Shown here one piece after another: positions 857 to 53,514 of a stretch of 64,000 nucleotides of DNA. The notes beneath the pieces were generated by a model, which was not told where the DNA came from, made no database searches, and was given only the letters and a program-made list of their open reading frames with translations. Position numbers and translations under genes: made by a program. The DNA comes from Bacillota bacterium. GTDB lineage: Bacteria; Bacillota; UBA994; UBA5500. How positions within the stretch are numbered: position 1 is the first letter of the stretch; every line of letters begins with the position of its first letter. The stretch spans positions 91 through 64,090 of the forward strand of contig JAEZJZ010000030.1 of the NCBI GenBank assembly GCA_023436245.1, in the 5' to 3' direction.

Positions 857-911
857 GAGCAGCTACCTCCTCTGCGGATGTCGCTGCTAGTATAACCACT
901 ACGGGAAGCAA

Positions 912-1673
912 TCAGAAATCCAGCAGGCCAAAGAGATAAGAAATCAGCGGCCTAGGACCGGCAAAGCGACTGACCAGAGCAAGAACGTCTTCCCAAAAAA
1001 CCACGGCAGAGGGGCAGACCGGCGGAGACAAGTCTTGGATAACAGCATCGCATCCGCTCTCGGCGGCGCTGGGCTGTTCATGGACCTTTGCCCATCTGCG
1101 CCGCGTCACCAACAGCACCCGCAACAGGTTTCTTGCTGGCCGCTGCCCCGTCGCCGAACGACAATCGGCTGCCTGTGTCAGAGCCCCGCTCAACCAGTGT
1201 TCCAGGTCCAGCGAGACCACGGCCTGACTACCAATGATGCGCAGATCGGTCGATTCCACCAAGCCCACGGTCTCTCCCGCCTGGTAGACATGCTCTGCCA
1301 GGTCTATGCGGAGCGCATCGCATTCTAGATCATGATGCAGCGAATGCAGGATGATCGGCACCTGTGAATCAGTCGGCTGGCCAGAATGGTTGCAGGTTAT
1401 CTCGTATGCCCGGCCTAAATGCAACAGGAAGCCGTTCATCAGAGATCGATTAGCCGGTAGCAACTCATGGAAAATGCACCCAGCCAACACCCGGGCGCAA
1501 AGCCGCTTCTCCTTACTCGACGCAGGAAATGCATAGTGGTTGATCAGCATCAGAACACCTCCGCCCTCATGCCTAATATATGGCTGACAGCGACAGGTCT
1601 GACCAGAGATTTGCGCGACATAGGCTAACAGAGATACAGCAAGACCTAGCGATTGAACCAGGTCTTGCTGCAA
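912..1673 (-). CDS. hypothetical protein (possible HxxHHD phosphohydrolase-like motif); start uncertain
   Basis: 253-aa ORF in the same orientation as flanking genes; no confident family assignment. Confidence 0.35.
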   Translation of the reverse strand: MQQDLVQSLGLAVSLLAYVAQISGQTCRCQPYIRHEGGGVLMLINHYAFPASSKEKRLCARVLAGCIFHELLPANRSLMNGFLLHLGRAYEITCNHSGQPTDSQVPIILHSLHHDLECDALRIDLAEHVYQAGETVGLVESTDLRIIGSQAVVSLDLEHWLSGALTQAADCRSATGQRPARNLLRVLLVTRRRWAKVHEQPSAAESGCDAVIQDLSPPVCPSAVVFWEDVLALVSRFAGPRPLISYLFGLLDF

Positions 1674-1687
1674 ATGTTCGGGTCGCT

Positions 1688-2728
1688 CTATCCGTTTACC
1701 AGCAGATCCCGCATCAGGCGGTACATGTCTTCGACATCCTGTTCGTTGATCATCTCGTAGGCGCTATGCGTGTAGCGGGTGGGAAAGGTGAACAGGGCCG
1801 TGGGAATGCCGGCGCGAATCAGTTGATCTCCGTCGGAGCCGAAACCGTGAAAGACGGCATGCTGAATGGGCATCTGCAGCCGCTCAGCCGTGGCGATCAG
1901 CAAATCGGAGATACGCTCGCTATAGTGGATGCGAGCATCCTTGTGGGCAACAATCGGCCCTTTACCGAGCCCTGTGGGCATGTAGCTCTCCTTGACGGTC
2001 GGGATATCTCCCACCAGGCCAATCTCCAGCGCAATCGCCAAGTCGAAGTCCGCCTCTCTGGCTAAGTTGAGCGCCCCGCCCAGCCCGACCTCTTCCTGAA
2101 TGGTGGCGGCGAAGTAGAGCTCATACTTCAGTGACTGACCCTGTAGGTCTCTGGCCAGCGCGGTCATCAAAGCCAGACCGACGCGGTCATCCATCGCCTT
2201 GCCGACAATGTGGTGACCGAGGCGTCTGGTTTCCGCCTGAAAGATGACCGGACTGCCGGGATGGATGCCGAGCGCTTCCACTTCTGCCTTGCTGCTTAAG
2301 CCAAGATCGAGGAAGAAGTCATCCCACAGAAGCGTGTCTTTCGCTCGTTGGGCTACTGTGCGTACATGGCCGGTGGCCACACCGATCTGCCCAGAGTGAT
2401 AGCCGTTGCTGCCCTTCACCAGCACCCGCTGTCCGATATAGGTGGGGTTGGGGGCGATGGAAGATTCGCTCCCGCCGGTGCCCTGAGTCAACCAGCAGAA
2501 GCCATCGGCGGTAATACTCTTCACCAGGAAGTTGATCTCGTCCAGATGGGCGGTGATCAACAGTTTCGGCCCGGTGCCGCCCACCTTCGCCAGCACATTG
2601 CCGACCCTGTTTTGCCAGACCCGCTCGCAGAGCGGTGTCCAATCAGCCACCATGCGCGCCGCAACCAGTTCCTCGTGTCCGACAGGACCGGGCAACTCAG
2701 TGTATTCCTTAATCAAATCATACAGCAT
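1688..2728 (-). CDS. M42 family metallopeptidase (glutamyl aminopeptidase / FrvX-YsdC-like)
   Basis: 346 aa; N-terminal MLYDLIKEYTELPGPVGHE, metal-binding His/Asp/Glu pattern and size typical of M42 peptidases. Confidence 0.8.
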   Translation of the reverse strand: MLYDLIKEYTELPGPVGHEELVAARMVADWTPLCERVWQNRVGNVLAKVGGTGPKLLITAHLDEINFLVKSITADGFCWLTQGTGGSESSIAPNPTYIGQRVLVKGSNGYHSGQIGVATGHVRTVAQRAKDTLLWDDFFLDLGLSSKAEVEALGIHPGSPVIFQAETRRLGHHIVGKAMDDRVGLALMTALARDLQGQSLKYELYFAATIQEEVGLGGALNLAREADFDLAIALEIGLVGDIPTVKESYMPTGLGKGPIVAHKDARIHYSERISDLLIATAERLQMPIQHAVFHGFGSDGDQLIRAGIPTALFTFPTRYTHSAYEMINEQDVEDMYRLMRDLLVNG

Positions 2729-2912: not shown

Positions 2913-4760
2913 ATGAACAAGAAAATGGCTATGCTGTTAGCCCTGCTGATCAGTGTCACCAGCTGCCGTTCGATTGCACTGGCAGCAAATGAAGGAAGCG
3001 TCGCCCCCTCGGGCTTGACCCACTCCGAGTTGCGACGGGAAGTTGATGAGCTTGCCGCTCGCTACATAGGCGGGACAGTAGCCGGAGCGGCTGTGATTGT
3101 TATTCGAGATGGAGAGGCTGTACTGAACCGAGCGTATGGCATGGCGGACCGAGAGAACGGAGTGGCGGTGGATGACGACACCGTCTTCGAGTGGGGGTCG
3201 GCAACCAAGCTGCTGGTCTGGACAAGTGTGATGCAGTTGGTCGAGCAAGGAAGACTCAACCTGAACGAGGACGTTCGCAACTACCTGCCAGCCGGCTTCC
3301 TGACCAAACTGCAGTTTCCACAACCGATCACCATGCAGAACCTGATGCACCACAATGCTGGCTGGGAAGACCACCTGACCGACTTGTTTTACCAGTCTGC
3401 AGATCATCTGCGATCCCTGGAGGAGAGCTTGCGCATCTGCGAACCGGTGCAGGTTGCCGAGCCAGGGGCGGTAGTCTCGTACTCCAACTACGGGGTTGCC
3501 TTGGCAGGCTATTTGGTGGAGAGACTGACGGGGCAGCCTTTCTATCAGTACGTGAATGACCACATCTTTTCGGTCCTCGGCATGCAGGACACGGCTATCC
3601 ACCCGTCTCAGGCAGACAATCTGGGAGTCGCCGCTCGCAGAGAGCAGATCCACGGTTACCGCACAAAGGGAGAGGGAACGCTGATTCGCTCCCAGAGTGA
3701 GAGGATCTTCATCGGCCTCTATCCGGCGGGTAGCGCCATCGGCACCGCCCTTGACGCAGCCAAGTTCATCAGTGCGTTGCTTCCGAAGACAGGGACGTCC
3801 AGTCCTCTGTTCAAGAGCAACACCATCCTGAACGAAATGCTCTCCACCAGCTACCGCTACACGGACAACTACCCCGGCATCGCTCATGGCTTCTGGGAGG
3901 ATTTCGCCGCAGTGAGAATCCTGGGGCACGGCGGCAATACTGACAGCTTCTCCAGCTATTTGGCGATAGCGCCGGCCGAGGGCGCAGGGCTAGTGGTGAT
4001 GACAAATCAGGCTGCCGATCAATCGCTCTGCCCCAGCCTGCCGACGGTGGTCTTTGGCAGTTATGTCGCTCCCCCCGCTGATGACCTGCCAGCTGCGCAG
4101 CAAGTGGCCGGCAGATATACGGTCAGCCGACGACCATACTACGGCTTCACTAAAGTGATGGGTCTCCTGCAGACAGTCACCATCAATGCCATTGACAATC
4201 AGACCATTACAGCGTTAGGAAGCACTTATCAGCAAGTGCAGCCGTACATCTATCAGCAGGCAGACGGCAACGGGCTGCTCCATTTCTCGCTTGCGGATGG
4301 CCGCGTCTCGAGGGTGTCCATGATGTGCATGGACCTGTTGCCGCTATCGACCGGGTCTTTCACCGGGTCAGTCGTCTCAATTGGGCTATTGGCGGTCTGC
4401 CTGCTGTTCTTGGCGACTGCACTGGTGATCATGCTGATCAACCGGCTCCGGCATCGCGGTCGCGAGCTTCACAAGAGTCTGATTTGGACTGGTCTGCTCA
4501 ATCTGACCGGTGCGATTGCTGTTCTGAACACCGCTAACCTGTTCAGCAGAGCGATGGGTTATGCTCCTTATGCTGCCCTCCGCGTCAACTTCCTGCTCAA
4601 CTACGCCTATCTCGGGTTCACAGCGATTTGCTTGGCCGTAATCGGCTGGCGAGCGAGCAGAGAAGCGCTGACCAAGCGACAGAAGCTGTTCATAGTTCTT
4701 TCGTGTGTGGCTGCACTGGTGCTGGCAGCGACAATCATTGGTTGGCAGCTATACAAGTAA
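2913..4760 (+). CDS. serine hydrolase, beta-lactamase/PBP-like (class C fold), with signal peptide and C-terminal multi-TM anchor
   Basis: GGGGAGGAAC RBS then ATG at 2913; signal peptide MNKKMAMLLALLISV; S-A-T-K (SxxK) active-site motif; about 4 hydrophobic helices in the last 150 aa. Confidence 0.75.
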   Translation: MNKKMAMLLALLISVTSCRSIALAANEGSVAPSGLTHSELRREVDELAARYIGGTVAGAAVIVIRDGEAVLNRAYGMADRENGVAVDDDTVFEWGSATKLLVWTSVMQLVEQGRLNLNEDVRNYLPAGFLTKLQFPQPITMQNLMHHNAGWEDHLTDLFYQSADHLRSLEESLRICEPVQVAEPGAVVSYSNYGVALAGYLVERLTGQPFYQYVNDHIFSVLGMQDTAIHPSQADNLGVAARREQIHGYRTKGEGTLIRSQSERIFIGLYPAGSAIGTALDAAKFISALLPKTGTSSPLFKSNTILNEMLSTSYRYTDNYPGIAHGFWEDFAAVRILGHGGNTDSFSSYLAIAPAEGAGLVVMTNQAADQSLCPSLPTVVFGSYVAPPADDLPAAQQVAGRYTVSRRPYYGFTKVMGLLQTVTINAIDNQTITALGSTYQQVQPYIYQQADGNGLLHFSLADGRVSRVSMMCMDLLPLSTGSFTGSVVSIGLLAVCLLFLATALVIMLINRLRHRGRELHKSLIWTGLLNLTGAIAVLNTANLFSRAMGYAPYAALRVNFLLNYAYLGFTAICLAVIGWRASREALTKRQKLFIVLSCVAALVLAATIIGWQLYK

Positions 4761-5244: not shown

Positions 5245-6216
5245 TTAGATCGGCTTGTCATTCAAAGCAACAACACTGAGCCTCGCCAGGAAGGTTCGGG
5301 TCAGATCTGCAATTTGCTCCGCCTTAGTCTGATAGATGAAATGGGTTGCATCAATTGTCTGGTGCTGCGCGTTCTCGCCCAGACGCGCGAGATGGGCCCG
5401 CTGATAGCCCATGCCGTCATCCCGATCCCGCTTGGCCATGCCAGCGATCGACTGGGTTGAGATCAGCTTGAGCACCGGGATCTGTGCTGGGAATGGCAGC
5501 TGGTTGACCTGCTTGATGTTCTCCATCAACAAGCTGGCCTGGTTGATCAGCGTATCATTGACCACGTGGAGATTGAACAACCAATAATCGGCCACCTCTT
5601 TCGCAGTATAACCATTTGCGGCGAGCTTGGTCTCCGGAGCCAACTTGGAGGCAAGACGGATCAACCCGATGGCCTGCTGCGCCTTCGCTATCTGGAAGAG
5701 GAAGCTGGGAGGATTGCCTCCGTCAATCTTGGCCGTGGAGGTGGTGTCCAGCATGACCAGGGCGGCTACTTCCTCAGGAAAGGTGCTGGCGTAGTACTCG
5801 CAGTAAATACCAGAGGCAGAGTGTGGCATCAGAATATAGGGCGGTTTCAATCCGGCCGCTGCCAAAGCAGCCCTCAGCTCATGTACATAGTTGGCGTTCG
5901 TTCTTGGCACGTCCGTTTGGTCGCTGAAGCCAATGCCAAAGTACTCCACCGTGGCCACCACATGCTCTTGGGAGAGTGCCCTCATCAAGGGCCCAAAATC
6001 AGCCGAGGGCAGCGCTACACCAAAGCCCGGCAGCAGTACAATCGCCTGCCCGCCACTGCCTAGCGTGTGCACATGCATCCTCCGGCCGTCTACCTCAACC
6101 AACTGACCATATGGCCGAATGTCATCCAGTTCTCCTCTGGAGCGAGCGCTGTTAACCAGATAGCCGATCAGCGCAGCCGCGGCAAAGGATGCAAAGACAA
6201 TTCCAGCAACATACAT
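5245..6216 (-). CDS. alpha/beta-fold hydrolase with N-terminal membrane anchor
   Basis: 323 aa; N-terminal TM helix, HGxGxS-like region (LLPGFG), PHSASG nucleophile elbow-like motif. Confidence 0.65.
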   Translation of the reverse strand: MYVAGIVFASFAAAALIGYLVNSARSRGELDDIRPYGQLVEVDGRRMHVHTLGSGGQAIVLLPGFGVALPSADFGPLMRALSQEHVVATVEYFGIGFSDQTDVPRTNANYVHELRAALAAAGLKPPYILMPHSASGIYCEYYASTFPEEVAALVMLDTTSTAKIDGGNPPSFLFQIAKAQQAIGLIRLASKLAPETKLAANGYTAKEVADYWLFNLHVVNDTLINQASLLMENIKQVNQLPFPAQIPVLKLISTQSIAGMAKRDRDDGMGYQRAHLARLGENAQHQTIDATHFIYQTKAEQIADLTRTFLARLSVVALNDKPI

Positions 6217-6264
6217 AGCTCATTAACCTCTTTTCTCCCTATTTAGTAAACAGACCAAAATCGG

Positions 6265-6777
6265 CTATCTCTCTGTTGGCCACGAAATTAGGGCCAGGTT
6301 GCGCGGCTTTCTGTCCTCCGCCGGCCGATTGTCCAAGTGGCGGCTGAGCAGCCGACTGTACTCGGCAAGCAAGGCGTGGAACTCCTGATCGGTCAACAGG
6401 CAGACTATGTTCTGCAGAAACAACAGATCCCGCTTGGGGTCCGCATCAGGCTGGGAGAAGTAGCGGTCGAAACCGGCGTAAATCTGCATCAGAAAGCCAA
6501 AAGCATTCCTGGAGCCATGCTCCACCGTGTTCTCGGTCGCAAACTTGGCCAGGTTGAGCCCGTACGTGCGCTCCAGTGTCCCTCTCACCTTCGCCTCCGA
6601 GACAACACTGAGCAAGTCATGCTCGGTGAGGACGTTGATGTGGCGGTAAAGCGTGGTGCGAGGAACGTCGCCCATCGCTAGAGCCAAATCACCCGGCGTT
6701 GCCGTCCCACAGACGGAGAGGTGTTGCACGATCCTAGCTCTGACCGGGTGCAGCAGCACCTCATTCATGTCTCTCAT
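6265..6777 (-). CDS. ArsR-family winged-helix transcriptional regulator
   Basis: LLHPVRARIVQHL...TPGDLALAMGDVPRTTLYRHINVLTEHDLL is a classic ArsR-type HTH; first gene of a regulator-hydrolase-membrane protein unit. Confidence 0.6.
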   Translation of the reverse strand: MRDMNEVLLHPVRARIVQHLSVCGTATPGDLALAMGDVPRTTLYRHINVLTEHDLLSVVSEAKVRGTLERTYGLNLAKFATENTVEHGSRNAFGFLMQIYAGFDRYFSQPDADPKRDLLFLQNIVCLLTDQEFHALLAEYSRLLSRHLDNRPAEDRKPRNLALISWPTER

Positions 6778-6979
6778 TGGCTATCGCCCTCCTGTTAATA
6801 GTTCCAAACATGATTATAATACCGATAATGGAACTAGTCAATGAGTAGATTGGCGTACGCGAAAGGCCGCCATCGCCCACTTCTGGCAAGAAACCTTCAG
6901 GCCAACGGCAGGAGCCTAAGACGAGCGGGCCGAAATTCGTTACCAGGTGCTCTACCATGAACAAGATAGGGTGATGTGC

Positions 6980-7423
6980 ATGAAGGAAAGAAACCCCGCG
7001 CCGCTGATTGGGGCGATACTGGCTATCCTGATCCTGATCCCATCTGCACTGATTTTCTACCACGCGATGTTTGGGGACATGGGGTTGGTCTGGGAGTTGA
7101 CTGCGGAGGGGCTGCAGATCCAACACAGGGGCTCCCGCCCGCTGCTCCCAGCGGAAGAAAAGCTGATCCCCTATTCGAGCATCACGGAGATTCAGTTGCT
7201 GTCGCAGCCGGTCAGGATCAAGAAGGAATATGGACTTGACGGCGCGCGCACTCGCATCGGCGACTTCCGGTCAGATGAACTTGGCCAGGTCAAGGCATAC
7301 ATCTCAGATATCGGACGGCCGATAGTGCTGATCCGCTCCACGGGCGAGCCAAAGCCGATACTGCTCTCGCCGGAGGACGCCGAGCAGTTCATTGCGCAGA
7401 TGCATCTCCAAATGGACAAGTAA
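6980..7423 (+). CDS. hypothetical membrane-anchored protein (PH-like/bPH domain candidate)
   Basis: ORF track gives a GTG at 6947; an ATG at 6980 (MKERNPAPLIGAILAIL, TM helix) has a better context; co-directional with the downstream peptidase. Confidence 0.4.
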   Translation: MKERNPAPLIGAILAILILIPSALIFYHAMFGDMGLVWELTAEGLQIQHRGSRPLLPAEEKLIPYSSITEIQLLSQPVRIKKEYGLDGARTRIGDFRSDELGQVKAYISDIGRPIVLIRSTGEPKPILLSPEDAEQFIAQMHLQMDK

Positions 7424-48647: not shown

Positions 48648-49796
48648 CTAGAGCAGGCTGCTGACCCAGTTGAAGATCAGGGGATTGATCAAGGTGATCA
48701 TCCAGGCTCCTACCACAGGAACAACGAAGGTAACCAGCGGCGCTGGCGAGTTCTGTTCCTGGATGTTCTGCAGAGTGGCCATCGTGTTCGGCGGCATGCC
48801 GATGGCAAACCCCGGCAGGCCGGCAGCTATCAGCGCCGCCATCCTGTCCCGCCCAAAGAGAGCGGGAACCACAAAAAGGGATATCCCGAGCACCAGCAGG
48901 ATCTGCAGGAAGACGAGCATCCACGCCCCGGCCGTCAGCACACCCAGCTTGCTGAGGTCAAGGTTCATAAACGCGATGGCCAAAGTGATGGAGAGGGAAA
49001 TGTTGCCCAGCGTATTGATGTAATTCAAGTCAAGCCGAGGGTGACCGGATAAATCATCCACGATGCGCCAGGCGCTCGCCGCCGCCAAAGCCCCGGCGAA
49101 GGCCGGGAAGTAAGGCATCAGTTTGGGCACGAGCAACTGTCCGATGGTCACGACCACTAGATAGGCGGCCAGATGCGACAGCAGCGCCGGCGGGTTGATC
49201 GGGGACGGGCTCGGTGGGCTAGCTGGCCGCTGACGGTTGCCCTTGGTCAAGAGGGCGTACAGCGGACCTCCCAGGAACCCACCGAGCAGCAGGCCCAAAG
49301 TAGCGACAGCCCCGAGCAATGGCAATTGGCTCGCTGCTCCCTGTCCGGCCAGCACGGGGACGGCCAGGGGTTGGAGGGCCATTCCTCCCATGTGTCCGCT
49401 GCCGACGAGCAGACCGGCAGTGCGCGACAGACCGACCAGCGGCCCGAGCAGCAAGCCGGACAGCTTCTGCAGGAATGCCACACCGACCGTTACTACCAGA
49501 AAGAGCAGCACCTTCGGCAGCCCCTCCCGCAATAGTTTAGCGCTGGCCCGAAAGCCGATGGAAGCGAAAAAGCCTGCAAAGAAGATGGGCTGCAAAGTCG
49601 CATCCAACTGCACTGAGACTATCCCTTGACTGCCGAGCAAGTAGCGTGCTGCTGCAAACAGCAATCCTCCCACCACTGGGGCGGGTATGTAGTAGCGCCG
49701 GAGCAAGTCCACCCGCTTGGTCAGGCAATAGCCGAGTTGCAGTACCAGCAGCGCTACCGCAAGGGTCTGCAATGGACTGAGTGCAAGTGTCTGCAT
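48648..49796 (-). CDS. gltS: sodium/glutamate symporter GltS family
   Basis: Start MQTLALSPLQTLAVALLVLQLG; about 12 TM helices; the upstream in-frame ORF extension is rejected. Confidence 0.65.
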   Translation of the reverse strand: MQTLALSPLQTLAVALLVLQLGYCLTKRVDLLRRYYIPAPVVGGLLFAAARYLLGSQGIVSVQLDATLQPIFFAGFFASIGFRASAKLLREGLPKVLLFLVVTVGVAFLQKLSGLLLGPLVGLSRTAGLLVGSGHMGGMALQPLAVPVLAGQGAASQLPLLGAVATLGLLLGGFLGGPLYALLTKGNRQRPASPPSPSPINPPALLSHLAAYLVVVTIGQLLVPKLMPYFPAFAGALAAASAWRIVDDLSGHPRLDLNYINTLGNISLSITLAIAFMNLDLSKLGVLTAGAWMLVFLQILLVLGISLFVVPALFGRDRMAALIAAGLPGFAIGMPPNTMATLQNIQEQNSPAPLVTFVVPVVGAWMITLINPLIFNWVSSLL

Positions 49797-49798
49797 GC

Positions 49799-50257
49799 TT
49801 ACTTTGCCTCGGAGCTGAGGAAGCGGTCCATCACCCAGGCAGCAACCTGACCGGTGATCTTGACGCAATGTGCTTTGCGCTCCGGGCTGCCAAACTCGGG
49901 GAAGCTCGAGGTGATCACTCTGCAACAGGTGGCTCCGTACTCGGAGATAATGTAGTCATGCAGGTCTGCCGCAGCCGGAAAACTGTCTGGCATGGGAGCG
50001 CCTGGCTCGGTGCGCCCATATTTCATCCCCAGTGCCATGACGCCGCCGCTGATCGCTCCACAGACGCAACCTGACTTGCCGATGCCAATGGGGAACCCAG
50101 AAGCCATGCGCACGATCTCCTTGGGGAATGGTGAGCCCAGCAGCTCATTGATGGTGGCTACGACCGCCTCTGAACAGAAGTAGCCGCCGGAACGGAAGTA
50201 CTCCTCCGCCATGTCTCTCGCCTGGTCCACCAGGACCAGTTTCTCTTCATTAGTCAT
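49799..50257 (-). CDS. C_GCAxxG_C_C family redox protein
   Basis: CSEAVV...GCVCGAISGGVMALG...CC signature; stop 2 nt before the gltS start. Confidence 0.65.
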   Translation of the reverse strand: MTNEEKLVLVDQARDMAEEYFRSGGYFCSEAVVATINELLGSPFPKEIVRMASGFPIGIGKSGCVCGAISGGVMALGMKYGRTEPGAPMPDSFPAAADLHDYIISEYGATCCRVITSSFPEFGSPERKAHCVKITGQVAAWVMDRFLSSEAK

Positions 50258-50299
50258 CTATTAACGACCTCCTACCGCCAATTGGGCTCGATAGTGCTG

Positions 50300-50329
50300 A
50301 TTATAGGTATGGAGAGATGTGTATGTCAA
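50300..50329 (-). promoter_or_regulatory. consensus sigma-A promoter for the C_GCAxxG-gltS operon
   Basis: Minus strand TTGACA, 18-nt spacer, TATAAT, about 45 nt upstream of the GGAGG RBS. Confidence 0.6.
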
Positions 50330-50402
50330 TGACTAATGTGAACCATGACTGATCCTAATGCATGGGCGATTGTAGCATAAGGCAGGGTTATGAGCGGCTG
50401 CC

Positions 50403-50609
50403 CTAGGCAGCCGCCTTAACAGCAGCAGCCAGTTGCTCCATTGGGGAAGGAGTATGGTAGATGAGGCCGGCCTGCTCGGGATAGTGCTGTTTGATCAATC
50501 CCAAGAACGCAGGACAGCAGGAGGTGGTCATCACCGGATCGCCAGCCGCTCGCCGGGCCAAATACTCGCTGCCCTCATCGCGCGCCACTTTCTCCGTGCC
50601 CTGCGCCAC
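50403..50609 (-). pseudogene. relic of a [FeFe]-hydrogenase H-cluster domain (isolated 68-aa fragment)
   Basis: ...VMTTSCCPAFLGLIKQHYPEQ...SPMEQLAAAVKAA matches the HydA L1 motif FTSCCPGW..YPEL...SPQQM; no upstream or downstream continuation (83-nt and 145-nt gaps). Confidence 0.5.
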
Positions 50610-50692
50610 CTAGTCGGCCACGTCAAAAAGCGAGCCTCCCCGAAACTCAGGGGAAGGCTCGCTTTGGACCGGCTATGGCGTTGTTAAGCTCC

Positions 50693-51562
50693 CTAGAGAG
50701 ACAACTCCATTCCCTCGCGTGCGACATGAAACCCGCGTCCGAGCAACTCGTGCATTTCGGGACCGTGTGCAGCAAGCAGAGGATTTGTGTGATTCAGGTG
50801 AAAGAAGTAAATCCCGGTGTGGCCAGCGTCGACCACTGGTTGCAGCCGGTCCATGGTGTCGCGGATCAGTGGGTGGGGAATCTGAGAGTAATCCCTGCCG
50901 CGCGCGGACAGTTCGTCTGTCGAGAAGAAGGTGCCATCCAGGAAGAGATAGTCAAAGTCCTTCGCAACGTCCAGCAACGAGCGTTCCCACTGCTCCCACC
51001 GATCCAGGTCCGGCAGAAAGAGCAGCCTGTGCCTGGGGCCGGACACCTGGAAAGCGAAAGTCTCAGCGAACTCGTTGCGGTGCGGGACCAACCAAGGCGT
51101 GATGCTCAGTCCTGACGGCAACCGAACAGGATGATCCGGTTGCAGTGTCTGCAAGCTGATGTTGCCTAGGTCCACCAACTGACTCCAAGGTGCAGATGAG
51201 CGGATTAGGTTCTCCAAGCCTGCGCCTGCCCAGACGGGAACCTCCTGGGCGGAGATCGCCTCTTTCCCGAGGTACATCAGCCCCGCGTAGTGACCAATGT
51301 GGGCGTGAGTAAGAAAGACCCCATTCATCAGCCCGAGTTCCGGAGACGTTGCGTGCAGCAAGGCTAGCTGTTCCGGCAGATCGGGAGTCGCCTCCAGCAG
51401 ATACCATCGCTTTTCTCCCGGGAGAATAAGAGCCATGGCGGCGGCGTAACGCCGGTTCGCCGTGTGCTGCCGCGCTGCCTGGCAGTGATCGCAATAGCAG
51501 TTTGCTTGGGGCACCCCAGCATCTTGGGCCGTGCCCAGAATCTTCACCCGGATGTTCTCCAC
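50693..51562 (-). CDS. MBL-fold metallo-hydrolase, PqqB-like
   Basis: MENIRVKILGTAQDAGVPQANCYCDHC N-terminus is very similar to PqqB (LGSAAGGGFPQWNCNC); HxHxDH-type motif THAHIGH. Confidence 0.6.
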   Translation of the reverse strand: MENIRVKILGTAQDAGVPQANCYCDHCQAARQHTANRRYAAAMALILPGEKRWYLLEATPDLPEQLALLHATSPELGLMNGVFLTHAHIGHYAGLMYLGKEAISAQEVPVWAGAGLENLIRSSAPWSQLVDLGNISLQTLQPDHPVRLPSGLSITPWLVPHRNEFAETFAFQVSGPRHRLLFLPDLDRWEQWERSLLDVAKDFDYLFLDGTFFSTDELSARGRDYSQIPHPLIRDTMDRLQPVVDAGHTGIYFFHLNHTNPLLAAHGPEMHELLGRGFHVAREGMELSL

Positions 51563-51665: not shown

Positions 51666-53114
51666 CTAAACGCCCTCACCCAGGTCGTTCTGAAACTTGG
51701 CCACCAGATGCACCTGCCAATCGGAGACCGGCTGCAGGCGCCCGAAAAAGAAGCGGAGAGTGGCCGGCTCCTCAGTGAAGACTAGCCCTTCCACCATCTG
51801 TCGATTCTCAAATAGCCAAACGACGCGGTCGATGGCGTACTTCACCTGGGAGAGCGTGAAGACGCGTCGCGGCAGGGCCAGTCTCACCAACTCCAAAGCA
51901 GAGAAGACCTCATCTCCGGCGGGAGTGCGTTGCTCAGACAGGGTACCGCGTTCCATGCCGCGAATGCCGCCTGCTAAGTAGAGCGCCGCGGCCAGCGCCC
52001 CGGCCGGGTACTGGCCTTGCGGTACGTGAGGCAAGAAGGCGCTGGCATCGAGATGACAGCCCAGCCCTCCAGCCGGCGTGACCACAGGCACGCCCTGCGC
52101 CTGCAGCTGCTCCACCATGTAGCGAATGAACTCGGGCCCCTGGCTGATCATGTCTTCATCCATCGTCTCCTCCAAGCCGACCGTCATCGCTTCCATCTCG
52201 CGCACTGACATCCCGCCATAGGTGAGGAAGCCTTCGAAGAGTGGAATCATCTCGCGCAGCTGCAGGAAGGTCTGCTCGTCTCGCAGGCAGATGCCGCCGC
52301 CGCGGGCACAGCCCAGCTTGCGACCCGAGAAGTAGAGGATGTCGCAGAGGTCGGCAATCTGGCGTGTGATCTCGCGAATGCTCAAATAGGCGCAGCCGGC
52401 TTCCCGCTGCTTGATGAAGTAGAGGTTGTCGGCCAACAGACTGGCATCAAGCACCAGCGTCAGCTGATGCTGGTCACAAACCTGGCGCACTGCGCGCAGG
52501 TTCTCCAGCGAGAAGGGCTGGCCGCCAATCAGGTTACCGCCCGCCTCCATGCGCACGAAAGCGACCTGTTGCCTACCTTCACGTTCAATGAGCGCCTGCA
52601 GTGCGGCGACGTCAATGTTGCCTTTGAACTGGTGATTGCTGGTCACCTGCAGGCTCTCCGGCAGGAGCAGTTCCTCCACCCACCCTCCGCGCAGGGTGAT
52701 ATGCGCCTTGGTGGTGGTGAAGTGCACGTTCATCGGCACAACCATACCCGGGCGGACGAACACCTGTGCCAAGAGGTGCTCGCAGGCACGACCCTGATGG
52801 GTAGGCAGGAAGTGCTGGAAGGCAAACAGCTCCTGCAGCTTCTCCTCGAGACGCGTAAAGGTTGAGCTGCCGGCATAGCTGTCGTCAGCCAGCATCATTG
52901 CTGCCTGCTGGCGATCGCTCATGGCATTTACGCCGCTATCGGTGAGCATATCCAGAAAGATGTCGCGATTCTGCAGCAGGAAGGTATTGTTTCCAGCCGC
53001 ACTGATGGCTTGCAGCCGCTGCTTCGCCGGCAGCAGCTCTAGCTTCTGCACGATTCGCACCTTGTGCATTTCCAGGGGCAGCGATTCGCCGCTCCAAAAG
53101 GTTACTCTACTCAT
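51666..53114 (-). CDS. beta-eliminating lyase (tryptophanase / tyrosine phenol-lyase family)
   Basis: MSRVTFWSGESLPLEMHKVRIVQKLEL...; PLP-lysine region FSGRKLGCARGGGI resembles TPL MSGKKDCLVNIGGFL; AAGGAGGAAT RBS before ATG at 53114. Confidence 0.8.
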   Translation of the reverse strand: MSRVTFWSGESLPLEMHKVRIVQKLELLPAKQRLQAISAAGNNTFLLQNRDIFLDMLTDSGVNAMSDRQQAAMMLADDSYAGSSTFTRLEEKLQELFAFQHFLPTHQGRACEHLLAQVFVRPGMVVPMNVHFTTTKAHITLRGGWVEELLLPESLQVTSNHQFKGNIDVAALQALIEREGRQQVAFVRMEAGGNLIGGQPFSLENLRAVRQVCDQHQLTLVLDASLLADNLYFIKQREAGCAYLSIREITRQIADLCDILYFSGRKLGCARGGGICLRDEQTFLQLREMIPLFEGFLTYGGMSVREMEAMTVGLEETMDEDMISQGPEFIRYMVEQLQAQGVPVVTPAGGLGCHLDASAFLPHVPQGQYPAGALAAALYLAGGIRGMERGTLSEQRTPAGDEVFSALELVRLALPRRVFTLSQVKYAIDRVVWLFENRQMVEGLVFTEEPATLRFFFGRLQPVSDWQVHLVAKFQNDLGEGV

Positions 53115-53480
53115 TGGATGATTCCTCCTTCGTTTTTTTACTAGATTGCCAGTAACGTACGGATAGTCGACATCCAATGGAACCACCCCCTTCATGCAAA
53201 AACCCCGCCCTTTGAAAACTCAAAGGGCGGGGTTAACCGCGTTACCACCAATGTTCATCGGCACTTCACAGTGCCAACCTCGTCAAGTACGCTGCCTGCG
53301 GCAGTTATACCCTAGCGCTGTAACGGGCGCGGGCCCCGGCACGGCCTACTGGGGGGACCCCGTTCAGCCTGCAACTCGCGAGATGTATTCAGAGCCGGCC
53401 CCCTCGCACCTCTCAGCAACCGGTAGCTTTCTGTCAGGTGGCGCTTGGCTCTTACTGGTTCTCGGTCAACGTCTTTGTTA
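53115..53480 (-). promoter_or_regulatory. candidate T-box riboswitch leader of the lyase gene
   Basis: Transcript from a consensus promoter (53487-53514); T-box-like CAUUGGUGGUAACGCGG (consensus AGGGUGGNACCGCGG, UGGU bulge) lies immediately 5' of the terminator 53199-53235; about 80 nt from terminator to start codon. Confidence 0.5.
53199..53235 (-). terminator. intrinsic terminator within the T-box leader
   Basis: Minus strand AACCCCGCCCUUUG-aguuuuc-AAAGGGCGGGGUU followed by UUUUGCAUG. Confidence 0.8.
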
Positions 53481-53486
53481 TTTGGT

Positions 53487-53514
53487 ATTATAGCCGTTCT
53501 GGCGTTGCTGTCAA
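53487..53514 (-). promoter_or_regulatory. consensus sigma-A promoter (TTGACA-16-TATAAT) on the minus strand
   Basis: rc of 53509-53514 is TTGACA; rc of 53487-53492 is TATAAT. Confidence 0.65.

Follow-up and report, generated by a model that had tools for sequence, protein, structure and literature searches.

The locus described here raises the question of why a gene encoding a β-eliminating lyase of the tryptophanase (TnaA)/tyrosine phenol-lyase (TPL) family should be preceded by a T-box leader, and what that arrangement implies about the direction in which the enzyme operates. The locus lies in a 64-kb stretch of a Bacillota genome (GenBank assembly GCA_023436245.1, contig JAEZJZ010000030.1, positions 91 to 64,090), hereafter the window, to which coordinates refer unless a related locus is named; promoter, leader and lyase gene are all on the minus strand (Table 1). 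The evidence indicates that the leader is very probably a transcription-attenuating tRNA-Tyr T-box riboswitch, with read-through predicted to depend on the tRNA. With confidence only slightly lower, a tRNA-Tyr T-box coupled to a tyrosine-forming lyase is regarded as the best explanation of the locus as a whole. The tyrosine-forming, phenol-salvaging role of the lyase, with its presumed direction and substrates in vivo, is itself favoured by a modest balance of probability.

Transcription of the lyase gene is expected to proceed from the promoter TTGACA-16-TATAAT, which was the sole match in the 5 kb scanned. The first-pass annotation, an earlier reading of the same DNA, had described a textbook sigma-A promoter at 53487-53514, and the 12/12 match to consensus bears this out. 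With a predicted transcription start near 53480, the leader would extend for ∼280 nt to the end of a terminator near 53198, which is ∼82 nt ahead of the lyase ATG at 53114, in good agreement with the ∼270 nt and ∼80 nt estimated previously. An upstream in-frame ATG at 53195 would permit a 509-aa open reading frame (ORF), but was rejected as the start because the homologues are all of 482 aa and start at the position equivalent to 53114; the start was also placed there when genes were called independently on the source scaffold. Folding of the whole leader gave a better result than all 200 shuffled sequences (z = -4.2). The naming of the gene as a tryptophanase by NCBI pipelines would be compatible with control by a TnaC-like leader peptide and Rho-dependent termination, as in tnaCAB, which the first-pass annotation had listed as an alternative. 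This is scarcely credible, however, since the leader has a single AUG frame, an ORF of 12 codons within the T-box sequence that is devoid of both a ribosome-binding site and a Trp codon, and since the T-box model accounts for the leader fully.

The leader aligns with every position of the Rfam T-box model (RF00230), and the canonical domains can be assigned in order from Stem I to the terminator (Table 1). GAA-UAC-A, one of two specifier contexts put forward previously, forms the 3' side of the internal loop of Stem I, the Specifier Loop, and the position rule of the T-box database TBDB yields the identical triplet, UAC (PMC7778990). The other candidate, GCUACC, was rejected, as both the Rfam alignment and the fold place it in the distal helix of Stem I. 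Similarly, the earlier statement that the leader contains no UGG holds for the Specifier Loop but not for the leader at large, UGG being present in the T-box sequence and beside Stem III. The distal loop of the window leader has GCUG instead of GGUG. Bacterial tRNA-Tyr has the anticodon GUA and the discriminator A73, and the UGGU that was expected to suit an NCCA end with A73 is indeed located in the 7-nt bulge of the antiterminator. The 5' arm of the terminator contains the 3' strands of the antiterminator, with overlap at 53230-53223, such that the two structures are mutually exclusive in the predicted fold. Since the antiterminator fold in the window amounts to only -6.5 kcal/mol, as against -28.7 kcal/mol for the terminator, the terminator wins by default, which is the expected design of a tRNA-stabilised switch.

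A mechanism can be proposed on this basis. Transcription would begin at the consensus promoter, and Stem I would then offer UAC to the GUA anticodon of tRNA-Tyr while the distal loop docks against the elbow of the tRNA. An uncharged tRNA has a free NCCA end, with A73, that would pair with the UGGU of the bulge and stabilise the weak antiterminator, allowing RNA polymerase to read into the lyase gene. With a charged tRNA, the much stronger 15-bp terminator would form instead and transcription would stop short of the start codon. Since read-through would need uncharged tRNA-Tyr, expression of the lyase would be confined to conditions of low tyrosine charging. The predicted output of the enzyme is tyrosine formed from phenol, with either pyruvate and ammonium (the reverse TPL reaction) or serine (β-replacement) as co-substrates. 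Such salvage would parallel the recovery of indole by stand-alone TrpB under T-box control.

Next, the conservation of the leader was examined in related loci. A genome scan with the window lyase protein identified 80 loci with orthologues that are 63-79% identical. A T-box leader lies ahead of the orthologue, likewise of 482 aa, in 27 of these, all of Bacillota type and from lineages that include Youngiibacter, Halanaerobium, Tissierellaceae, Christensenellaceae, Oscillospiraceae and Izemoplasmatales. The motif GGUGGUA[ACU]C[GA]CG sits 73-321 nt upstream of the gene in these 27 loci. Conservation of the wiring to this extent contradicts the earlier suggestion that the T-box could be mis-wired. 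One of the related leaders is truncated and 26 are full-length; 17 score above the Rfam gathering score (94-154 bits), and eight further leaders give full-length matches of 60-93 bits (E <= 1e-10). In an alignment of the window leader with the 26 full-length relatives (27 leaders in total) both UAC and UGGU are invariant, and the AGUA, AG-bulge (AGAGA-like), distal-loop (GGUG-like), AGUAG and CGUUA boxes are invariant or conserved. A hairpin of varying size occupies the position equivalent to 53285-53312 in all 27 lyase leaders, and each of the five pairs of its outer helix shows compensatory changes.

Covariation extends to the remainder of the structure. RNAalifold applied to the whole leader recovered the distal Stem I helix, part of Stem IIA, the linker hairpin, Stem III and the terminator, with compensatory changes in 21 of 32 pairs, whereas Stem I on its own yielded the canonical five-helix stem with the codon in an internal loop and 19 of 20 pairs compensated. 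Stem I cells are paired in 90.4% of cases compared with 64% in shuffles, none of 500 shuffles reaching the observed value, and sliding the partners by one to three columns as a control reduced pairing to 38-49%. For the antiterminator, which was user-specified, 88.5% of cells are paired, again unmatched in 500 shuffles; in helix A2 pairing is complete (100%), with AU/GC/GU covariation, and one position of A1 shows AU/GC/CG. The terminator comprises ten pairs in the relatives, six of which have compensatory changes. Together, the covariance model, the covariation among the 26 related leaders and the invariance of UAC and UGGU bear out the initial proposal that the leader is a T-box.

The alignment also bears on whether the T-box might read another tRNA, for example tRNA-Thr, or be dual-specific. 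The +1 frame is ACA or ACG (Thr) in all leaders, and for some T-boxes the use of other specifier frames has been considered (PMC7778990). However, the canonical position rule gives UAC, an invariant triplet whose 3' neighbour is a purine in every one of the 27 leaders (A in 25, G in two), whereas the base that follows ACA or ACG is variable. T-box specifiers moreover favour codons ending in C (PMC7778990), and the regulated enzyme has a tyrosine/phenol pocket. A specificity other than tyrosine is accordingly considered very improbable.

The identity of the lyase was examined by comparison with profile models and with structures in the PDB. The only model passed was the broad NF009709 'tryptophanase' subfamily model (595 bits); the protein failed both the TPL equivalog TIGR02618 (EC 4.1.99.2; 444.4 bits against a cut-off of 720.7) and the TnaA equivalog TIGR02617 (345.6 against 825.8). 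Its top PDB relatives are TPLs (∼390-404 bits), with tryptophanases at ∼290-315 bits. The protein is 40.5% identical to the TPL of Citrobacter freundii and 35.7% identical to Escherichia coli TnaA, while those two enzymes are 43.2% identical to one another, and members of its own clade are at least 62% identical to it. As judged from these comparisons, the lyase is a third deep branch of the TnaA/TPL family, neither a canonical TPL nor a tryptophanase. With regard to the placement (TPL versus TnaA) that the first-pass annotation had called for, the pocket is of TPL type, but the protein belongs to a separate subfamily. NCBI annotates the clade as 'tryptophanase' and JGI as 'tyrosine phenol-lyase'.

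Residue conservation was counted over 193 clade sequences, with the numbering of C. freundii TPL. Thr124, Met379, Arg381, Phe448, Phe449, Tyr71, Arg100, Asn185, Asp214, Lys257 and Arg404 show at most one exception apiece (192 or all 193 sequences), and the positions that confer specificity in TnaA (Asp137, Ile396 and His463) are occupied in the clade by Thr, Arg and Phe. A second set of positions is just as constant but substituted: R217L, K256R, N262R, E69D and T216S are invariant, and D258L and M288F each occur in all but one sequence (192 of 193). In an exhaustive search of 1.84 billion representatives this signature was found only in the group of the query, in P0121 and P0127, and, for its N-terminal part alone, in a few truncated representatives. 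Canonical TPL representatives retain E69, R217, K256 and D258, as do most TnaA representatives. It is a matter of speculation that the Arg262–Asp69 pair could substitute for the monovalent cation. In addition, eight proteins of ∼850-930 aa (P0122-P0126, P0128, P0130 and P0132) contain TnaA/TPL-like domains in tandem, two per protein, and the identity of each domain to the lyase of the window is 32-39%.

The direction of the reaction can be approached from the regulation. The known targets of tyrosine T-boxes, namely tyrS, an NhaC-type transporter, the aro operon and phenylalanine-4-hydroxylase (PMC2494555), all raise the level of charged tRNA-Tyr, which argues that the lyase likewise raises tyrosine supply. 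TPL can join phenols either to pyruvate and ammonia or to serine, yielding tyrosine or 3,4-dihydroxyphenylalanine (DOPA) (PMC10170061, PMC13174591), and, since the TPL-type residues that serve phenol and the Cβ–Cγ bond are all kept, tyrosine formation from phenol would be the most coherent output of the circuit. For canonical tpl, which is regarded as degradative, L-Tyr is the inducer and TyrR the activator (PMC10170061), whereas the T-box clade would be induced by a shortage of tyrosine; a tyrosine-forming role is thus the best inference.

The gene neighbourhood was analysed in the same loci. In two of them, L073 and L041, a stand-alone trpB (631-634 bits, equivalog) adjoins the lyase gene and has a T-box of its own, in which the specifier is UGG and the bulge UGGC. 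The lyase leaders of the same two loci have UAC and UGGU, which indicates that the lyase is wired to tyrosine and not to tryptophan; the trpB and lyase genes form a small 'aromatic ring salvage' neighbourhood. In a third locus (L031, 5898-7975) genes for DAHP synthase and 3-dehydroquinate synthase (aroB) lie downstream of the T-box lyase on the same strand, after a gap of 449 nt. All-against-all clustering of ORFs from 81 loci revealed no conserved operon partner, the lyase being the sole shared ORF family. The next gene is on the opposite strand in many T-box loci, and the T-box there is therefore dedicated to the lyase alone.

An alternative is that the T-box is functional but controls an ordinary catabolic TPL, the induction of which might serve, for example, phenol production or the release of pyruvate and ammonia in starvation. 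TPL is indeed regarded as degradative, with an equilibrium towards breakdown (PMC10170061, PMC13174591), and the TPL-type pocket is kept. Nevertheless, to destroy tyrosine while tRNA-Tyr is uncharged would be self-defeating, yet the wiring is kept in the 27 loci across many Bacillota lineages. The tyrosine-increasing nature of the known tyrosine T-box targets (PMC2494555), the induction of the canonical catabolic tpl by tyrosine as opposed to its absence (PMC10170061), and neighbours that comprise trpB with a tryptophan T-box and aro genes all speak against a catabolic function, which is deemed unlikely. By contrast, the tyrosine-forming route induced by tyrosine starvation, as proposed in the first-pass annotation, is the best-supported reading, and is leaned towards, if not strongly, given the wiring in 27 loci and the tryptophan T-boxes on adjoining trpB genes.

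Several observations nonetheless weigh against the interpretation of the locus as a tyrosine T-box with a tyrosine-forming lyase. The equilibrium of the lyase reaction favours breakdown, and synthesis is usually driven with 1-10 mM substrates (PMC13174591), a problem that β-replacement with serine would sidestep. The invariant R217L substitution is at a position that contacts pyridoxal 5'-phosphate (PLP), and the chemistry may differ from that of TPL. A characterised member of the clade was not found in the literature, and related loci contain no conserved phenol-related or transporter partner gene. With respect to the RNA, approximately two thirds of the related loci have no T-box, some having a quite different leader. 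The window proved devoid of tRNA genes, and a tRNA-Tyr gene was likewise missing from the related loci, so that the anticodon and discriminator pairing described above is that expected of bacterial tRNA-Tyr in general. Two U.U mismatches are present in antiterminator helix A1 of the window leader, as also in those of L001, L002 and L004. Lastly, the covariance check suggested at the outset gave a full-length match (E 7.9e-19) yet fell short of the Rfam gathering score, at 84.1 against 93 bits, such that a default Rfam scan of the whole window returned no match and the T-box emerges only when E-value thresholds, which were used besides the gathering score, are applied. The shortfall results from an insertion and from GC-rich deviations, with no domain missing.

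The last of these features could feasibly identify the window leader as a decaying or constitutively terminating T-box relic that no longer regulates: the score is under the cut-off, A1 is mismatched, the antiterminator is far weaker than the terminator and the distal loop departs from GGUG. Against this, all positions of the Rfam model are matched and every conserved box is present, and weak antiterminators are usual in T-boxes. The A1 variant is common to the three relatives named above, the lyases of which are 78-79% identical to the window protein, and the leader of one of them (L004) passes the gathering score at 94.5 bits. In the window and these three closest relatives the mismatches are flanked by additional A-U and C-G pairs. 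The consensus promoter and the ribosome-binding site of the window gene are also intact. Decay of the leader is hence quite improbable, and a working tRNA-Tyr T-box remains the preferred interpretation.

Table 1. Coordinates of features in the window and of trpB T-boxes in two related loci.
Feature	Position	Strand	Basis or remark
-35 box TTGACA	53509..53514	-	12/12 sigma-70/sigma-A consensus with -10 box; 16-nt spacer
-10 box TATAAT	53487..53492	-	Promoter scan; promoters at equivalent place in relatives
T-box leader	53220..53478	-	RF00230, all model positions 1-219, 84.1 bits, E 7.9e-19
Stem I	53373..53473	-	GA/K-turn region, Specifier Loop, AG bulge, distal loop
AG bulge ACAGAAAG	53434-53427	-	Part of Stem I
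Distal loop GGUUGCUGAGAGG	53421-53409	-	Part of Stem I
Specifier codon UAC (Tyr)	53385..53387	-	Rfam alignment; inside GAAUACA (53390-53384), conserved purine follows
Stem II (S-turn CAGUAGG) and putative Stem IIA/B region	53321..53371 (S-turn 53351-53345)	-	Rfam alignment
CCCGUUA of the Stem IIA/B region	53327-53321	-	Rfam alignment
Extra two-tier hairpin in linker between Stem IIA/B and Stem III	53285..53312	-	Insertion in Rfam model; fold
Stem III	53258..53277	-	Seven covarying pairs
T-box sequence UGGUGGUAACGCGG	53250-53237	-	Direct reading
Antiterminator	53223..53251	-	A1 53251-53248/53226-53223; A2 53240-53237/53230-53227
Antiterminator 7-nt bulge UGGUAAC	53247-53241	-	Acceptor-binding UGGU at 53247-53244
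Intrinsic terminator	53198..53234	-	15-bp stem, 4-nt loop, U run; -28.7 kcal/mol
Terminator arms AACCCCGCCCUUUGA / UCAAAGGGCGGGGUU	53234-53220 / 53215-53201	-	Pair as 15-bp stem
Ribosome-binding site AAGGAGG	53124..53130	-	Direct reading of sequence
PLP-dependent β-eliminating lyase, 482 aa	51666..53114	-	Profile models, PDB relatives, signature residues
Clade-invariant substitutions in the lyase	Asp78, Leu226, Arg265, Leu267, Arg271		TPL Glu69, Arg217, Lys256, Asp258, Asn262 (PLP O3'/monovalent-cation region)
MBL-fold PqqB-like protein	51562-50693	-	
C_GCAxxG_C_C family protein	50257-49799	-	
GltS-like symporter	from ~49796	-	
trpB T-box / trpB, locus L073	512-739 / 863-2032		Equivalog and T-box match
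trpB T-box / trpB, locus L041	5539-5791 / 5916-7106		Equivalog and T-box match

Leaders of other types were noted among the related loci. Two short, atypical lyase leaders (L021, 3850-3975, and L040, 3780-3945) have a T-box-like bulge (GGUGGUAAUACGG or AUGGUUACGG) followed by a terminator; the upstream RNA is too short for a normal Stem I, and no Rfam call was obtained at a threshold of E <= 0.01. Both leaders may represent reduced forms of the T-box, or be of another kind. The lyase loci of Syntrophomonadaceae type (L003, ∼3700-3915, together with L006, L007, L008, L009, L020, L023, L027 and L032) have no T-box. In these, the region 100-330 nt upstream of the lyase start was examined, and a leader of ∼125 nt was found with an extended -10 element (UGGUAUAUAAU), two clusters of UAG triplets and then an intrinsic terminator. 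Each cluster has three to five triplets and the clusters are ∼20-25 nt apart; the UAG count is seven to nine in these leaders versus ∼3 in shuffles. The AGGGUG of the second cluster in L003 is complementary to the 5' arm of the terminator, and no Rfam family matched this type of leader. The arrangement of repeats looks like the binding site of a TRAP- or HutP-like attenuation protein. In the flanks of related loci, unrelated matches were obtained to an azaaromatic (yjdF) riboswitch (L063, 5941-6035, minus strand, 67 bits) and a Moco riboswitch (L007, 7779-7898, plus strand, 63 bits), in addition to a near-threshold TwoAYGGAY RNA (L011, 7139-7296, plus strand, 41.3 versus 43).

Downstream of the lyase gene in the window, the region 48648-51562 of the same strand contains genes that are not conserved beside the lyase in relatives (Table 1). 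A terminator scan found none between the lyase and the MBL-fold PqqB-like gene, and the downstream genes may therefore share the T-box-controlled transcript.

Among characterised systems, the tyrS-type T-boxes of Bacillus subtilis match in Stem I, where the Specifier Loop, AG bulge and distal loop recur, in Stem III, in the UGGN antiterminator bulge and in the competing terminator, as well as in Stem II and a putative Stem IIA/B, and they share UAC, UGGU (A73) and the logic of attenuation. The leaders described here differ in that they carry an extra covarying hairpin and, in the window, an A1 helix that is weakened and an Rfam score under the threshold, and in that the gene governed encodes a PLP-dependent lyase as opposed to a tyrosyl-tRNA synthetase. 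A closer functional parallel is the tyrosine T-box of phenylalanine-4-hydroxylase (and of the aro operon) in the B. cereus group, which likewise activates an alternative tyrosine-making enzyme in response to uncharged tRNA-Tyr (PMC2494555), although the enzyme family, the precursor (hydroxylation of phenylalanine versus presumed condensation of phenol) and the taxa are different. The stand-alone trpB genes of L041 and L073 provide another parallel, in that a PLP enzyme run by a T-box makes an aromatic amino acid from a free ring (indole plus serine); TrpB, however, is of fold-type II, catalyses an irreversible β-replacement, and is governed by UGG/UGGC and not UAC/UGGU.

With regard to the enzyme, canonical TPL (C. 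freundii, Erwinia herbicola; TIGR02618) is of the same fold and family and shares Lys257, Tyr71, Arg404 and the residues of the phenol pocket. The window lyase is nonetheless only ∼40% identical to it, and thus more distant from it than TPL is from TnaA; its PLP/cation site is changed and its regulation is opposite to the activation by TyrR and L-Tyr of canonical tpl (PMC10170061). TnaA, under tnaC control, belongs to the same protein family, and the window clade bears its name at NCBI, but the clade lacks the specificity residues of TnaA, and a tRNA-Tyr T-box stands in place of the leader peptide.

No T-box before a gene of the TnaA/TPL family was found in the literature, including Wels 2008 with its supplements, Sun 2013 and the TBDB paper (PMC7778990), although an earlier mention is possible in Vitreschak 2008, Gutierrez-Preciado 2009 or the RegPrecise/TBDB tables. 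As an RNA the leader is an ordinary T-box, save for an additional hairpin that is lineage-specific; the novelty resides in the gene under its control and in what this implies. T-box specificity is among the few statements of the purpose of a gene that can be read from sequence, and a tyrosine T-box across many anaerobic Bacillota denotes a widespread enzyme that is needed when tyrosine is scarce. More tentatively, the clade may represent a natural anabolic 'tyrosine synthase' that salvages environmental phenol under tyrosine limitation, a possibility rated somewhat below even. Its altered PLP/cation site (R217L, K256R, D258L, N262R, E69D) may bias the enzyme towards synthesis or β-replacement, perhaps independently of a monovalent cation. 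The clade would correspond, for tyrosine, to the stand-alone TrpB that salvages indole, and may be controlled by T-boxes in some Bacillota and by a different, UAG-repeat attenuator in Syntrophomonadaceae. Cultured carriers of the system include Youngiibacter multivorans DSM 6139, Y. fragilis 232.1 and Halanaerobium sp. MA284. If the interpretation is true, thousands of database entries would be re-annotated, and enzyme engineers, who at present drive canonical TPL uphill or obtain tyrosine synthases by the evolution of TrpB (PMC13174591), would have a natural starting point. A route from phenol to tyrosine would also be added to the biology of anaerobic habitats that are rich in phenol and ammonium, such as digesters, sediments, shale and the gut.

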